DNA from: Escherichia phage PhiV-1
Strand: one strand, 5' to 3'
Length of the DNA stretch: 39,461 nt
Sequence record: MT542512
How positions within the stretch are numbered: the stretch's first letter is position 1; each line of letters opens with the position of its first letter. A program made the translations under genes and the position numbers. Below the pieces are notes generated by a model, which searched no databases, was not told the DNA's origin, and saw only the letters and a program-made list of their open reading frames with translations. Shown one piece after another: positions 181 through 35,625 of this stretch.

Positions 181-283
181 AGTGACCTTTGAGTCATCAC
201 CTTATGTTTCCTCTTTGAGTCATCACCTTATGACCTCCTTATGGCTGGCTATCCTTATGTTAACCTTCAGTCGGTGCCTTATG
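78..283. repeat. Left-end array of short CCTTATG direct repeats (counterpart of T7 CCTAAAG repeats)
   Basis: CCTTATG at 78, 137, 200, 226, 237, 253, 277; 20-bp duplicate ctttgagtcatcaccttatg at 187-206 and 213-232. Confidence 0.6.
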
Positions 284-6794: not shown

Positions 6795-6814
6795 TACGAC
6801 TCACTAATGCGAAA
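6792..6814 (+). promoter_or_regulatory. Phage RNAP promoter (phi1.3 position)
   Basis: TAATACGACTCACTAATGCGAAA (C at +2). Confidence 0.6.
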
Positions 6815-6816
6815 GA

Positions 6817-6861
6817 GTTAAACTAAAGGTCATCCATAATACGGTGGCCTTTGTGATTAAC
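6817..6861 (+). promoter_or_regulatory. RNase III-type processing hairpin (R1.3 position)
   Basis: gttaaactaaaggtcatc / ggtggcctttgtgattaac. Confidence 0.55.
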
Positions 6862-6898
6862 TTTTGACTACTTAATAACCAACAATAGGAGTTCCATC

Positions 6899-13167: not shown

Positions 13168-13470
13168 ATGGCTATTAAATTCCCCGGCAACACAATCCGT
13201 CTGTCCGACACCATCGACCAGTATGCCCGTCGAGTGCACATCAACGTCCGCAACGGAAAGGTAACACTGGTCTACCGTTGGAAGGACAGTAAGTCCACCA
13301 AGGCGCACACACAGCGTGTGACTCTGGATGACACACAGGCAGGTCGTCTGCTGGCCTCCGTTGCTGTAGCCGCTACTGTGGCTGTAGGTGAAGACAATGT
13401 TCGTCAGGTTCTGCTGGGTAAAGCCGTGGAGTCTGAGGGCAACATGCTTGCTGACAAGTGTGAAGAGTAA
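13168..13470 (+). CDS. Hypothetical protein (gene 4.5 position)
   Basis: 100 aa; RBS taggag; no recognised motif. Confidence 0.55.
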   Translation: MAIKFPGNTIRLSDTIDQYARRVHINVRNGKVTLVYRWKDSKSTKAHTQRVTLDDTQAGRLLASVAVAATVAVGEDNVRQVLLGKAVESEGNMLADKCEE

Positions 13471-13472
13471 GA

Positions 13473-13517
13473 GTTAAACTAAAGGTCATCTTAACGGGTG
13501 GCCTTCGTGATTAACTT
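13473..13517 (+). promoter_or_regulatory. RNase III-type processing hairpin (R4.7 position)
   Basis: gagttaaactaaaggtcatc / gggtggccttcgtgattaac. Confidence 0.55.
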
Positions 13518-13528
13518 TTGTATGAAAT

Positions 13529-32300: not shown

Positions 32301-33332
32301 ACTCAAGAGTTTGCTGCTCGCTCTCCGTTCACTAAGTTCCTGAATGGTACATCAAACTACATTCTCGACATGGCTCGACAGGGTGTGATGGGTGATGTGG
32401 TCACTCATGCTATCACTGGCAAGGGTGCCAACAAGTGGATTAAAGGCGACATGCTGAAGTCTGCGAGTATCTCAAAGGAACAGTGGGAAGGCATTCAGAA
32501 CCTCATCCGTGAGAACGTCACTCAAGGTGCTGACGGTAAGTACACCTTCAAGGACAAACGCAAGCTGGCTAATGACCCTCGTGCTATGGACTTGTGGCGC
32601 TTAGCTGATAAGGTTGCCGATGAGACAATGCTGAGACCTCACAAGGTTTCACTTCAGGATTCCCATGCGTTTGGTGCTGCCGCTAAGTTGGTCCTTCAGT
32701 TCAAGTCTTTCGTAATCAAGTCGATGAACTCTAAGTTTATCCGCTCTGGTCACGAGGCTATGAAGAATCACCGAGCTATGGACATGGCATTAACCTATGC
32801 AATCTCTGGAGGCATCGCTGGTGCTTACTATGTTGCACAGGCACACATGAAGGCTGCTGGTCTACCTAAAGAGCAACAGAAGGATTACTTGAAGAAAGCT
32901 CTGGACCCTAAGATGATTGCGTATGCTGCTGCATCCCGTAGTTCACATTTAGGTTCCCCGTTGAGTATCGCCAACTTCGCTATGGGTGCTGCTGGTTACG
33001 ACCAAGGTCTCATGGTGCGCTCCACGATTCTACCGAAAGGAGAAGACAAGCGTGACCGGAATAAAGCAGTGACCTCTCGTGATATGGGAGAATCCATCAT
33101 GGGCGCTATTGGTGAACAGATTCCTGCTCTTGGTTTCGCTGGGGCAACTCTTGCTGCTGGTCGAAATGCTTATGGTGTCCTAACGGCTCCTAACAAAGTG
33201 ACCGAGCGTGAGATGATGACTGGCTTGATGAATGCTCATCGTGAGATGGTTCCTAACGACCCTATCACTCAACAGATGCTCATTAAGTTCTATGAGGCTA
33301 ACGGTGTTCACCTTAAGTCTGACAAGAAGTAA
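29385..33332 (+). CDS. 16: Internal virion protein D with N-terminal lytic transglycosylase domain
   Basis: 1315 aa; GTG start 7 nt after aggagg; N-terminus MDKY..N.P..YD.LFQ.AAD..GVSY.LLRKV.W.ESRF.PTA.S.TGP.G.MQFTKAT as in T7 gp16. Confidence 0.95.
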   Translation: MDKYNQNEPHEYDALFQQAADTHGVSYGLLRKVGWVESRFKPTAQSPTGPRGVMQFTKATGQAYGLQNDEDFADPAKSIDAGARYLADLVKKYNGDELKAALAYNQGEGRNGKPQLEAYDSGNFAGIGDEGRNYLRSLLDVAKSPKSGDIESFGGITPKGKGIPFDTAMSGIGKKGKVTTELPESHSMSFQGKEQSAPNQPFGKDYWEAKGTTLDEANERSTFFGFGNATEAELSNSTLGVAFRAGKRDNGFDVVTDVLQPTRFNSHIWSPEELERIRNEVKNPAYMNVVLGGSSENLDELIKLANENFELDSKAADAGIGAKLSAGLIGAGVDPLTYVPIAGTAAKGFKLVNKALIVGAQAGALNVASEGLRTSVAGGDAHYAEAALAGMLFAGGLTAIADGVAAGLRKSGAEQIENPFAAAQMRFEARETARNTGGYDASRMPPSEDRVFSNHNGVEYSPLETEPGAVVLRDGSIISDTNLANPMTAKEFAEVDPERAAWGLPMRGLSEIGLRTLRSEHAEIRGLAKDLVRSPTGMESGSHGKFGATASDIKERLHSTNQRTYNDLYDAMKEAMADPEWSVGMFKRGAQGARQEIYRRAAIAIERPELQANLTKAERKVMDIMKEHFDLKREMMENPAMFGNKATSIFPNSRHKGTYVPHVYSREAKQLYAQALGGSDGLQEAIAASWMTSYRSRPEVKARVDEHLAETLGIDPKAVTEEMVMKHASDKAYGIAKTDEFNSSSVIDDNIEGLVGIENNSFLEARNLFDSDMPVTLPNGQQFSVNDLRDFDMKHVMPAYDRRVDGDIAIMGGTGKTTAELKDSIMALDKKSEGKGTMKGEVEALKDTVKILTGRARRNQDTMGDTMVRALSDMSFFTKNAYMGLQNLTEISGLLAKGNTRAMLHGIPALRDLAFRNKPVSGKELKELHSMVFGKEFDDLIRPTRQDIIQRLRESTDTPDVAAKVVGTVKHTTQEFAARSPFTKFLNGTSNYILDMARQGVMGDVVTHAITGKGANKWIKGDMLKSASISKEQWEGIQNLIRENVTQGADGKYTFKDKRKLANDPRAMDLWRLADKVADETMLRPHKVSLQDSHAFGAAAKLVLQFKSFVIKSMNSKFIRSGHEAMKNHRAMDMALTYAISGGIAGAYYVAQAHMKAAGLPKEQQKDYLKKALDPKMIAYAAASRSSHLGSPLSIANFAMGAAGYDQGLMVRSTILPKGEDKRDRNKAVTSRDMGESIMGAIGEQIPALGFAGATLAAGRNAYGVLTAPNKVTEREMMTGLMNAHREMVPNDPITQQMLIKFYEANGVHLKSDKK

Positions 33333-33333
33333 T

Positions 33334-33356
33334 CAATACGACTCACTAATGGGAAG
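33334..33356 (+). promoter_or_regulatory. Phage RNAP promoter (phi17)
   Basis: CAATACGACTCACTAATGGGAAG; 5' hairpin gggaaggctcacacagcttccc. Confidence 0.7.
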
Positions 33357-33403: not shown

Positions 33404-35371
33404 ATGGCTAACAAGATTCGTACTGTGATGACTTACCCACTTAATGGTGCCGTGAACTTCACGATTACCTTTGAGTATCTGGCACGTAAGTTCATCCAAG
33501 TGACACTCATTGGTAAAGACCGTAAAGAACTGGTTCTCAATCAGGACTACCGTTTTACCAGTAAGACTCAAATTACTACTACCCGTGCGTGGACTGCTGC
33601 TGATGGCTACCAGATGATTGAGATTCGTCGATTCACTTCGGCTACTGACCGTCTGGTTGACTTTGCCGATGGCTCAATCCTCCGTGCGTATGACCTGAAC
33701 ATCTCGCAGATTCAAACACTGCATGTTGCCGAAGAAGCACGAGACCTCACTGCGGATACCATTGGTGTCAACAATGATGGTCACTTAGATGCTCGTGGTC
33801 GTAAGATTGTTAACTTGGCGTATGCCACAAGTGACTATGATGCCGTTCCTTTAAAGCAGGTTAAAGAGCGTGAATCCTCTGCATGGAATGCTGTGACAAA
33901 AGCTAACGAACACGCTGACAGGGCCAATAAGGAAGCAAACCGTTCTCGTGATGAGGCCAACCGTGCCCAACGTGAAGCTGACCGCTCAACGCAACAGGCA
34001 GGTGTCTCTACACAACAAGCAGTTGAGGCCAAGAAGCAAGCTGACCGTTCTAACTCTGAGGCTAACCGAGCTAAAGGTTATGCTGATAGTATGACCGCAA
34101 GTGTCGCTGAGGCCAAGAAGCAAGCTGACCGTTCCACCTCTGAGGCCAATCGTGCCCGTGATGAGGCCAATCGTGCTGCCGGAGAAGTGACTAAAGCTGC
34201 TGCTGAGGTTGCCAAGGCTGCTGCACACGTTGAGACCGCTAAGAGTCACGCCAATCGTGCTAACACTGAGGCAGAACGCTCTAAGAGTGAAGCCGACCGT
34301 GCTAAAACCGAGGCTGACAAGCTGGGTAATATGAATGAATTAGCTGAGGCCATCGACAGGGTTGATGCTCCTGATGTTTACTTCAAGAGGAATGTTATAG
34401 CCGGACACAAATTGGAGACTTCTGGAGGCTCGCATCTTCACCCTAATGAGATTAAATTGGTTAACAATAAATCTCCAGACCAGCACTTCATTGTACAAGC
34501 GTGGGGAACTGGAGACCCTAATAATAGGTCGCAGGTGTTTGAGTTAAAGGATAACTTGGGTCCGTACGCATTCTATATCCAGCGCCAGAAGAAGACAGAC
34601 CAAACTTGGCAAATGAGTGTGAACGGTACTGTTAGCTGCGTATCCATCGAGGCTGGCAAGGGTTTCATCTCTAAGGACAGTACAGGCTCCATTCAGATGA
34701 AGACTTGGGGGGGTGGTTGGAACCAATGGACTTCTAATGCTGTTCCAGACATTCAGCACGATATTGAGGCCCAACATGATGCTGCTTATCTTCTGGAGAG
34801 GGCTACCATTTGGGGTAAGGAGCATTTATACGCAAAACAACTGTACAATAATGGCACTGGCGCAAACTTCTTTATTCGCCACTACCTACGAGGCTCTTAC
34901 TTCGACTTCCGCTCTGATGGTACTCTTATCAGTTCCACCGGATGGAATATCCCGGCAGATGGAAACCTGTACATCAAGAAATATGGACTATATATTGATG
35001 CGTGGGTTAACAAGCGCTTGGGCGAACACGCCTACAACAAGAGCGAGACAAACAACCTAGTGAATGGTCGATTGACACAAGCGCAAGCTGATGGTCGCTA
35101 CATTCGCAAGAACGCTGGTTGGGCTGAGGTCTGGAGCGGCTCTGCTGGTGGTGGTGTTTCCGTAGGTCTCTCACAGGATGTTCGTTGGAGAACCATCTGG
35201 ATTCAAACTCAAGGCAGATGGAACCCTGTTCAGATTGGTGATAATGGTGCTTACTACATCTCGTCTAATGGTGGGTGGTTGAAGTTCACCATCTCTAATA
35301 ACGGTAGGACGTTCCGTAACGATGAGGACAGGACTTCTGTTCCTACGAGAATCTTGATTCAAAACCAATAA
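33404..35371 (+). CDS. 17: Tail fibre protein
   Basis: 655 aa; N-terminal about 150 aa and C-terminal tip (AWTQVWSGSAGGGVSV..SQD.R.R.IWI...SNG..F.N..D.RSVP) match T7 gp17; central coiled-coil longer than in T7 (553 aa). Confidence 0.95.
   Translation: MANKIRTVMTYPLNGAVNFTITFEYLARKFIQVTLIGKDRKELVLNQDYRFTSKTQITTTRAWTAADGYQMIEIRRFTSATDRLVDFADGSILRAYDLNISQIQTLHVAEEARDLTADTIGVNNDGHLDARGRKIVNLAYATSDYDAVPLKQVKERESSAWNAVTKANEHADRANKEANRSRDEANRAQREADRSTQQAGVSTQQAVEAKKQADRSNSEANRAKGYADSMTASVAEAKKQADRSTSEANRARDEANRAAGEVTKAAAEVAKAAAHVETAKSHANRANTEAERSKSEADRAKTEADKLGNMNELAEAIDRVDAPDVYFKRNVIAGHKLETSGGSHLHPNEIKLVNNKSPDQHFIVQAWGTGDPNNRSQVFELKDNLGPYAFYIQRQKKTDQTWQMSVNGTVSCVSIEAGKGFISKDSTGSIQMKTWGGGWNQWTSNAVPDIQHDIEAQHDAAYLLERATIWGKEHLYAKQLYNNGTGANFFIRHYLRGSYFDFRSDGTLISSTGWNIPADGNLYIKKYGLYIDAWVNKRLGEHAYNKSETNNLVNGRLTQAQADGRYIRKNAGWAEVWSGSAGGGVSVGLSQDVRWRTIWIQTQGRWNPVQIGDNGAYYISSNGGWLKFTISNNGRTFRNDEDRTSVPTRILIQNQ
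33948..34175 (+). repeat. Internal direct repeats within tail-fibre shaft coding region
   Basis: 26-bp exact repeat gaggccaagaagcaagctgaccgttc at 34025-34050 and 34109-34134; cgtgatgaggccaa(c/t)cgtgc at 33948 and 34157. Confidence 0.65.
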
Positions 35372-35415: not shown

Positions 35416-35625
35416 ATGTTGTCATTGGATTTTAACAACGAGGTAGTGAAGGCTGCTCCGATTGTAGGGACAGGGGTTGCCGATGGTGCTTCCAGACTGT
35501 TCTTCGGCCTATCACTTAACGAGTGGTTTTATGTAGCCGCAATTGCCTACACAGTGGCTCAAATTGGTGCCAAGGTAGTCGACGTGGTTATCAAATGGAA
35601 GAAGGAGGGTAGAGATGTCGGATAA
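35416..35625 (+). CDS. 17.5: Holin (class II)
   Basis: 69 aa; MLSLDFNNE..KAAPIVGTGVAD...RLFFGLSLNEWFYVAAIAYTV.QIGAKVVD near-identical to recalled T7 gp17.5. Confidence 0.9.
   Translation: MLSLDFNNEVVKAAPIVGTGVADGASRLFFGLSLNEWFYVAAIAYTVAQIGAKVVDVVIKWKKEGRDVG

Follow-up and report, generated by a model that had tools for sequence, protein, structure and literature searches.

Gene 17 of Escherichia phage PhiV-1 (MT542512) encodes a T7-type tail fibre, and the segment flagged at positions 33890-34330 (aa 163-309), the shaft of the protein gp17, is the alpha-helical rod of that fibre. We analysed the whole 39,461-nucleotide sequence, here called the window. The segment as a whole is very probably best explained as the proximal rod of a T7-family fibre, built from old heptads at the protein level, in the 20-heptad form found in Berlinvirus-type phages. 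A 140-aa, 20-heptad shaft is the standard form of Berlinvirus-type gp17, already known and ordinary, and it did not arise by recent expansion of a DNA array. Because the same rod occurs in dozens of sequenced relatives, the feature is real and commonplace; it was comparison with T7 only that made an allele-wide feature look special.

Gene 17 encodes a T7-type tail fibre

The product of gene 17 had been called a tail fibre of 655 aa, longer than the 553 aa of T7 gp17 (NC_001604), and this identity was confirmed by the open reading frame, Pfam, PHROG and PDB. At the DNA level the gene is 84-91% identical, from end to end, to the genes annotated as tail fibre in ETEP21B, CarlSpitteler and BA14, and the protein matches PHROG 4242, "tail fiber protein", at E ~ 1e-244. 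Pfam PF03906 covers aa 1-154 (E = 3.3e-51; 173.5 bits, cutoff 25.2), the N-terminal cryo-EM chains of T7 gp17 (7BOZ, 8E4G) match at E = 1e-67, and PDB entries 4A0T/4A0U match aa 555-655 at E = 2.6e-24.

The gene also has the expected neighbours. A 1315-aa open reading frame ending at 33332 fills the gene 16 slot (internal virion protein with lytic transglycosylase), and a 69-aa frame at 35416-35625 occupies the place of the class II holin annotated in relatives; the order of gene 16, gene 17 and then the holin gene is also that of annotated relatives. The promoter upstream of gene 17 is an exact copy of the window's own repeated promoter consensus, found at 11 sites against 0 expected by chance, and the phi17 promoters annotated in T7, Yepe2 and FE44 occupy the corresponding place. 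The PF03906 domain, the gene position, a heptad rod with its junction and a 4A0T-type tip together place the product in the T7 family of gp17.

The source phage is a Berlinvirus, ~93% identical to CarlSpitteler and 285P. Its gene 17 is a mosaic, S523-like up to ~nt 800 and ETEP21B-like beyond (identity to S523 is 95-99% before gene nt 800 and ~80% after), and its exact protein sequence is absent from a 15-billion-protein collection. With Berlinvirus-type gp17 (BA14, ETEP21B, CarlSpitteler/Bas68, 285P, FE44, P483 and S523, with the recombinant Sxt1/Sekstaphage-1, JeanTinguely and EG1) it shares a 162-aa N-terminal domain, a 140-aa shaft of 20 heptads in nearly the same sequence and an EADKLGNMN junction, and its total length equals that of BA14, ETEP21B and CarlSpitteler. 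It differs from these relatives in its mosaic make-up and in the DNA identity given above for its best full-length matches.

Table 1. Features of gene 17 and its upstream region (window coordinates)
Feature	Position	Strand	Basis
Phage RNA polymerase promoter (phi17 equivalent), upstream of gene 17	33335..33354	+	AATACGACTCACTAATGGGA
Gene 17, tail fibre protein, 655 aa + stop	33404..35371	+	ORF listing; full-length DNA matches; PHROG 4242
N-terminal tail-attachment domain, aa 1-162	33404..33889	+	PF03906; 7BOZ/8E4G; 69% identical to T7
Shaft between conserved anchors, aa 163-302, 140 aa (T7 98 aa)	33890..34309	+	Anchor-based measurement
20 uninterrupted heptads [A/S]xxEA[D/N]R, aa 167-306	33902..34321	+	Heptad listing, position composition
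27-bp exact repeat, copy 1, heptad 7, EAKKQADRS	34024..34050	+	Exact match
27-bp exact repeat, copy 2, heptad 11, EAKKQADRS	34108..34134	+	Exact match
Conserved shaft-end junction EADKLGNMNELAEAIDRVDAPDVYFK, aa 303-328	34310..34387	+	65% identical to T7 aa 262-287, ungapped
Distal region between shaft and tip, aa 329-571, 243 aa (T7 182)	34388..35116	+	26% identity to T7
C-terminal receptor-binding tip domain, aa 572-655	35117..35368	+	52% identical to T7 aa 470-553, ungapped; 4A0T/4A0U

Most of the extra length over T7 lies outside the shaft

Lengths were measured between conserved anchors on both sides, and the protein was aligned to T7 gp17 region by region. The two fibres have the same domain order and a heptad-built proximal rod (T7 structures: 7BOZ/7EY9, N-terminal; 4A0T, C-terminal), and the identities in Table 1 uphold the view that the N-terminal domain and tip are T7-like. 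Relative to T7, the N-terminal domain differs by -1 residue, the shaft by +42 (six heptads), the region between shaft and tip by +61, and the junction and tip by 0. It follows that 59% of the net extra length falls outside the shaft. The original prediction, which put the extra length in a central segment, was therefore right that the shaft is longer than that of T7, but the alignment assigns 61 of the 102 extra residues to the distal region. A contiguous insert of 26 aa sits there, around aa 535-560, within the linker that leads to the tip; insertions between shaft and tip have been described in a Berlinvirus-type fibre in the paper on Sxt1 (PMC11680406).

The rod ends in a conserved EADKL..N.N.LA junction. 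Megablast alignments to many relatives stop at gene nt 935-984, which points to a module boundary at this shaft-end junction.

The shaft is a run of heptads

Across the 20 heptads, position 1 is Ala or Ser in 19, position 4 is Glu in 11, position 5 is Ala in 16 and Val in 4, position 6 is Asp or Asn in 13, and position 7 is Arg in 12. At lags divisible by seven the mean identity is 0.27, whereas shuffled sequences give 0.11 +/- 0.009 (z = 17.7). The same analysis found no periodicity in the distal part of the protein. The heptad-like units that had been predicted for the central segment are thus present and contiguous, and internal repetition is significant, in this periodicity as in the exact DNA repeat described below. 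The T7 shaft has 14 heptads and carries aromatic residues (F, W, Y) in the first of them.

Repetition is mostly at the protein level

No exact direct repeat in the whole window, the repeated promoters included, is longer than TGAGGCCAAGAAGCAAGCTGACCGTTC, which is present in two copies 84 bp apart. It had been given as 26 bp; the repeat and its lag stand, and the length is 27 bp. The repeat goes beyond what the protein repeat and codon usage would lead one to expect (P = 0.001-0.002, 2000 synonymous-codon shuffles), and heptads 7 and 11 are identical in 7/7 codons. Elsewhere in the shaft, DNA repeats are imperfect, 60-71% identical, at lags that are multiples of 21. Tandem Repeats Finder (TRF) returned 0 arrays in gene 17, even at a minimum score of 30, and codons at same-residue positions are shared between the other heptads 188 times, against 193 +/- 10 expected. 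With no array and codon sharing at chance level, one pair excepted, the repetition resides mostly in the protein. The claim that the heptads are encoded by direct DNA repeats thus holds for one patch of ~27 bp, and the remainder follows from the amino-acid motif. We also considered a 28-aa unit (heptads 6-9 versus 10-13) as a DNA-level duplication and discarded it, as its sharing of 10/17 codons is not significant (P = 0.16).

Heptads 10-12 exist in two allelic forms. One, in the window, BA14 and others, is a copy of heptads 7-8; the other, in Yepe2, PYps50T and Sxt1, resembles heptads 17-18. Of the 13 fetched relatives that share the window's form, 12 repeat 14-37 nt exactly with the 84-bp lag seen here; the longest repeat of each measures 16-37 nt, except in KFSA9, where a 210-bp duplication is longest. 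In the three fetched relatives with the other form, an exact repeat at this lag is no longer than 14 nt (Sekstaphage-1) or was not found, and T7 gene 17 has no exact DNA repeat of at least 14 nt. The existence of two forms fits with conversion between repeats. The first residue of heptad 7 is Ala (GCC) in the window and Ser (TCC) in most relatives, by which the exact repeat is extended on its 5' side. The 27-bp patch may best be explained by short intragenic gene conversion, or as the remnant of a duplication inherited by this allele group. Comparison of the alleles suggests a conversion event at heptads 7 and 11; exchange of diverged alleles between phages would yield the same pattern.

Shaft length is fixed in this lineage

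Relatives were taken from GenBank phage records and from an exhaustive HMMER search. The shaft is 140 aa long in 15/15 fetched relatives (BA14, 285P, Yepe2 and others), with near-identical heptads in the same order, and their total gp17 length (569-674 aa) varies through the distal part only. In 70 of the 73 matching GenBank phage records the shaft aligns in one piece at a coverage of at least 80%, and query span equals record span in every such alignment among the 60 matches listed. The eight close loci in IMG/VR all have a 140-aa shaft. The comparison among relatives that the original prediction had suggested thus bears out a shaft longer than that of T7, but one that is constant at 140 aa and not special. 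Across the family, shafts range from 84 to 169 aa (155 representatives), with a mode of 98 aa (51 representatives) and a multiple of seven in 94 of the 155.

It has to be asked whether the shaft might instead be an actively length-variable array, in which unequal recombination regularly adds or removes heptad blocks and tunes the reach of the fibre to the host surface. Such activity is suggested by the 692-aa gp17 of Aeromonas phage vB_AroA_KFSA9 (PQ824399), whose shaft is of the same type and heptad sequence as in the window and whose distal part is unrelated. A perfect, in-frame tandem duplication of 210 bp (10 heptads) covers heptads 2-11 and results in a 30-heptad shaft; its copies are joined at a 12-nt repeat motif, GCTGACCGTTCC, with the new junction sequence AAGAATCAAGCTGACCGTTCCAATAAGGAAGC. 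Further, the lag of every exact repeat in these genes is divisible by 21, so that any crossover preserves both reading frame and heptad phase, and shaft lengths in the family differ mostly by whole heptads. Deletion between direct repeats in T7 climbs steeply with repeat length, in the account that PMC4362386 gives of Pierce et al. (1991).

We nevertheless consider an active array unlikely. The shaft has stayed unchanged in the fetched relatives and in the 70 records above despite DNA identities of 80-95%, and neither a TRF array nor an excess of codon sharing was found, save in one heptad pair. The KFSA9 duplication occurs in a single record with copies that are 100% identical, and may be an assembly artefact. 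The sole apparent shorter variant, CICC 80001, is unreliable: we rejected it as a shaft shorter by four heptads, since both ends of the record fall within the shaft repeat and the join makes a "heptad" of 8 residues. Neither mark of a copy-number-variable tandem locus, a high-identity tandem array and a copy number that varies among close relatives, is seen here. It is plausible that recombination between repeats of this kind can alter shaft length, and KFSA9 is one natural example, but in this lineage the length is fixed.

The rod is probably a three-stranded coiled coil

For the proximal rod of a T7-family fibre, which remains our preferred reading, homology with T7 gp17 predicts that a long alpha-helix (~aa 150-318) would assemble with its counterparts in two further copies of the chain into a parallel three-stranded coiled coil; a T7-family gp17 is expected to be a homotrimer, with six fibres per virion. 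The rod joins the N-terminal domain, which binds the tail, to a kinked distal half that binds the receptor. Its six heptads over the 14 of T7 would add ~6 nm (0.148 nm per residue), and its heptad repetition is old and maintained at the protein level. The equivalent region of T7 has been described as a triple-helical coiled coil from AFM, AlphaFold and MD (bioRxiv 10.1101/2025.10.22.683886). Heptads of the EADR/EVTKA type in the C-terminal part of the shaft are shared with gp53 of the Pseudomonas N4-like phage DEV (PDB 9COD sequence, E = 5.6e-6), where AlphaFold2 predicts a trimeric coiled coil that fits elongated low-resolution density (PMC11445570). DEV gp53 differs in its N-terminal attachment domain, phage family and distal domains, and only its N-terminal barrel has been modelled experimentally.

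A single-sequence AlphaFold2 model of the monomer reaches moderate confidence (pLDDT 65-75) only in two helices, aa 150-198 and aa 203-318; the model is poor overall (mean pLDDT 44) and breaks the helix at aa 199-202. The core positions are small (Ala/Val at position 5, Ala/Ser at position 1) and flanked by Glu and Arg, at positions 4 and 7 respectively. The apolar 3-4 spacing is uninterrupted and a helix is predicted, although the Ala/Ser/Val core is smaller and less hydrophobic than in canonical coiled coils. With this core, and with the position-4 aromatics of T7 absent from the first heptads, packing and stability could differ from those of T7. Of the coiled-coil shaft proposed originally, the heptad helix longer than that of T7 stands, and its three-stranded state is likely by homology with T7.

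The small core raises the question of a charge-stabilised single alpha-helix, or a loose, dynamic helical linker, that would depend less on a hydrophobic core than on intrahelical Glu(4)-Arg(7) salt bridges. These two residues do supply charge pairs at i/i+3 and i/i+4, and the proximal region of T7 fibres unwinds and rewinds in the same AFM study. However, a strict 3-4 spacing of small apolar residues across 20 heptads is the signature of a coiled coil, both ends of the rod are anchored in domains whose T7 counterparts are trimers (7BOZ, 4A0T), and the homologous T7 region has been seen as a triple helix. We regard a single helix or loose linker as quite improbable.

T7-group phages are generally transcribed from one strand only. 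An additional function of the DNA repeats at the nucleic-acid level or in another frame (an antisense ORF or a regulatory element) is extremely improbable: minus-strand stretches of 96-166 codons without a stop do overlap the shaft, in all relatives as well as in the window, but their frame and extent shift between relatives, every gene identified and all 11 phage-promoter sites are on the plus strand, an Rfam scan of the whole window gave no match, and a codon set restricted to GCN/GAN/CGN/AAN is expected to leave antisense frames open, so we rejected these ORFs as a by-product of composition.

Implications

The 20-heptad shaft is already present in BA14 and in dozens of deposited phage genomes, annotated as tail fibre in all but two, and the greater length of Berlinvirus-type fibres has been remarked upon for phage Sxt1 (PMC11680406). 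As a discovery the feature carries little weight, being already known, and comparison with T7 only exaggerates the rarity of the long shaft. For discussions of fibre length and host range, the extra length should be split into a rod component (+42 aa) and a distal component (+61 aa). The conserved junction at the rod end, as a module boundary for swapping receptor-binding parts, is useful in fibre engineering.

A rod length that stays fixed despite recombinable repeats, together with the lone duplication in KFSA9, raises a small question: is rod length under selection? It is tempting to speculate that the short repeats in heptad phase, the 27-bp pair and the GCTGACCGTTCC motif, are a built-in substrate for changing fibre length in steps of whole heptads, KFSA9 being a single such event caught in a sequenced genome. 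If so, the fact that ~70 genomes keep 20 heptads despite these repeats would mean that rod length is selected, for instance for docking to the capsid or for the depth of the host surface layer, a proposal we hold to be unlikely.

Results

The window corresponds approximately to a whole Berlinvirus genome (Autographiviridae, Studiervirinae), with about 93% identity to Escherichia phages CarlSpitteler and 285P across its first 25 kb. Gene 17 follows a gene-16 homologue (1315 aa) and precedes a small ORF whose counterpart is annotated in relatives as a class II holin. The T7 tail fibre N-terminal domain, Pfam PF03906, matches gp17 over aa 1-154 (E = 3.3e-51) and PHROG 4242 'tail fiber protein' spans its full length. 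The flagged segment was correctly identified as a tail-fibre shaft. The exact gp17 protein is absent from the large protein collection searched. A protein word-index search with aa 1-330 gave no protein above 576 aa among the matches listed; it missed the 655-aa relatives BA14 and CarlSpitteler, and exhaustive HMMER found one (P0121).

Features of the window and of gp17 (nucleotide positions unless marked aa)
Feature	Position	Strand	Remarks
Gene 17	33404..35371	+	ORF, 655 aa
Flagged range	33890-34330	+	aa 163-309 of gp17
Phage-polymerase promoter ahead of gene 17	33335-33354	+	promoter match
27-bp exact direct repeat, copy 1	34024-34050	+	copies 84 bp apart
27-bp exact direct repeat, copy 2	34108-34134	+	copies 84 bp apart
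Antisense ORFs over shaft	33835-34249	-	65 and 87 aa; ORF overlap
~55-nt element, two copies	6811-6866 and 13467-13518		AAGAGTTAAACTAAAGGTCATC ... GGTGGCCTT(C/T)GTGATTAACTTTTG
Promoter-like sites (11)	425, 5642, 6267, 6793, 9053, 12697, 20582, 21576, 25995, 33335, 38847	+	
20-nt exact direct repeat	187-206 and 213-232		CTTTGAGTCATCACCTTATG; 26-bp spacing, near left genome end
gp17 N-terminal domain	aa 1-162		T7 aa 1-163; difference -1
gp17 shaft	aa 163-302		140 aa vs T7 98 aa; difference +42
gp17 junction (EADKLGNMN... to ...YFK)	aa 303-328		T7 aa 262-287; difference 0
gp17 region between shaft and tip			243 aa vs T7 182 aa; difference +61
gp17 tip			84 aa vs T7 84 aa; difference 0

In gp17, 20 heptads follow one another without a break from aa 167 to aa 306 (consensus [A/S]-x-x-E-A-[D/N]-R). 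At lags divisible by seven, mean residue identity is 0.27; composition shuffles give 0.11 +/- 0.009 (z = 17.7). The same analysis found no periodicity in the distal half of gp17. Single-sequence AlphaFold2 modelled gp17 poorly overall (mean pLDDT 44), and its only moderately confident part is helix at aa 150-198 and 203-318 (pLDDT 65-75). Together with the 27-bp DNA repeat, these results bear out an internally repeated shaft.

The original prediction placed the extra length of gp17 in this central segment. Conserved anchors flank the shaft on both sides in the T7 reference (553 aa, NC_001604), and between them it holds 42 of the net 102 additional residues, exactly six heptads. The remainder lies elsewhere and includes, within the region ahead of the tip, a contiguous 26-aa linker insert; the shaft explains less than half of the excess over T7, and the original placement is correct only in part.

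At the DNA level, an exact repeat of 26 bp had been proposed at a separation of 84 bp; the spacing was right, and the repeat is 27 bp, the longest exact direct repeat in the entire window, whereas T7 gene 17 has no exact repeat of at least 14 nt. Repeats of at least this length arose in 0.1-0.2% of 2000 synonymous-codon shuffles with the protein held fixed, so the repeat reflects common descent of the DNA and not a repeated peptide alone. The wider proposal that direct DNA repeats encode the shaft stands for this patch and fails elsewhere: Tandem Repeats Finder reported zero arrays, and same-residue positions between heptads share codons in 188 of 438 cases against 193 +/- 10 expected from the codon usage of the shaft itself. 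For the remaining direct repeats, identity is 60-71% and the lags are divisible by 21. Heptads 7 and 11 are the sole outlier, with identical codons at 7/7 positions; a duplicated four-heptad DNA unit (heptads 6-9 vs 10-13) was not significant (10/17, P = 0.16). True DNA identity is thus one short patch; the heptad array of the shaft is old, its repetitiveness kept by selection on the protein.

Full-length gene 17 homologues occur in ETEP21B (90.7% DNA identity), CarlSpitteler (87.9%) and BA14 (84.0%), each encoding 655 aa as in the window. We fetched 15 relatives, comprising Berlinviruses and Teseptimavirus and Teetrevirus phages with this fibre type; all 15 have a 140-aa shaft of near-identical heptads, and the differences in their total gp17 length (569-674 aa) lie wholly in the distal part. 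The shaft plus anchors, as blastn query, matched 73 phage records (E <= 1e-30), 70 of them in a single piece with at least 80% coverage, and query and record spans were equal in all such rows among the 60 matches listed. Close IMG/VR loci concur on shaft length (8/8), and 12 of the 13 fetched relatives with window-type heptads 10-12 carry an 84-bp-lag exact repeat of 14-37 nt. Across 155 family representatives with both anchors, shafts span 84-169 aa, with a mode of 98 aa (51 proteins) and a multiple of seven in 94; 140 aa falls in the upper few per cent, and longer ones exist. The long repeated shaft is thus the normal state of a well-sampled allele group. In MT374859 (Yersinia phage vB_YpP_T3) the gp17 homologue is labelled 'smc: chromosome partition protein', a name almost certainly given in error because of its coiled-coil shaft.

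Other elements were noted in the window. Antisense stop-free stretches of 96-166 codons overlie the shaft in all relatives, and their frame and extent vary; a restricted codon set accounts for them, and we rejected the antisense ORFs as anything more than a by-product. The two ~55-nt copies have hairpin potential, one lying directly 3' of a phage promoter, and resemble RNase III processing sites of the T7 type; an Rfam gathering scan of the window gave no match. Each of the promoter-like sites departs from AATACGACTCACTA(A/T)TGGGA by two mismatches or fewer (chance expectation none), and the sites fall into two sub-types, ...CTAATGGGA and ...CTATTGGGA. The 20-nt repeat may belong to the array of short repeats that lies beside the terminal repeat in T7-like genomes.

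Discussion

Berlinvirus-type gp17 has the long shaft as an inherited trait common to its alleles; it is not special to this genome and is already known in kind. An elongated fibre of the same type has been remarked on in phage Sxt1, where the authors assigned the insertions to the 'pyramid' region and linker, not the rod (PMC11680406).

From its homology with T7 gp17 on both flanks, the segment is most likely the fibre's proximal rod. In a presumed trimer, three helices running in parallel would form a coiled coil between the N-terminal domain, bound to the tail, and the receptor-binding distal half, and six added heptads would lengthen it by ~6 nm at the textbook rise per residue. Work with AFM, AlphaFold and MD describes the T7 rod as a triple-helical coiled coil that is dynamic (bioRxiv 10.1101/2025.10.22.683886), and gp53 of phage DEV has similar EADR-type heptads in a predicted trimeric coiled coil. 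In the shaft heptads, one core position is occupied by Ala or Val and the other by Ala or Ser, without the aromatic residues of the T7 rod, so stability and packing may differ.

Exchange within gene 17 appears to have left shaft length unaltered. Heptads 10-12 occur as a copy of heptads 7-8 (the window, BA14 and most others) or in a form resembling heptads 17-18 (Yepe2, PYps50T, Sxt1); the two forms, apparent evidence of exchange, fit gene conversion among the repeats, or exchange of alleles from one phage to another. The gene is also mosaic, 95-99% identical to S523 over nt 1-800 and to ETEP21B over nt 1001-1400. The switch falls near the shaft end, and the similarity of many relatives stops at the shaft-end junction (gene nt 935-984), which marks a boundary for swapping distal modules.

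The proposal that recombination alters shaft length finds one supporting record, with length otherwise constant. In Aeromonas phage vB_AroA_KFSA9 (PQ824399, 977-3055 of the sequence fetched), gp17 has 692 aa and heptads 2-11 are duplicated. An exact repeat of 222 nt with a lag of 210 constitutes a perfect 210-bp tandem duplication, bounded and joined by the 12-nt motif GCTGACCGTTCC, which the window's 27-bp repeat has at its core too. Neither the reading frame nor the heptad phase is disturbed, and the shaft comes to 30 heptads. As the copies are identical and the record is single, the event may be genuine and recent or may be an artefact of assembly. Escherichia phage CICC 80001 (KM242061), the only candidate for a shorter shaft, was considered and rejected: its record both starts and stops within the shaft repeat, splitting gene 17 over the record ends and leaving a truncated fragment annotated 'tail fiber protein', so the apparent shortening is probably an assembly break. 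Apart from these two, shaft length is constant.

Every exact repeat in these genes lies at multiples of 21 bp, and therefore any crossover between them would keep frame and heptad phase. PMC4362386, citing Pierce et al. 1991, states that deletion between direct repeats in T7 climbs steeply with repeat length; by that measure, variants 84 bp shorter would be expected readily, yet none was seen among the relatives compared, which suggests selection on rod length. The point worth keeping is this juxtaposition of recombination-prone, heptad-phased repeats with a rod of almost invariant length.
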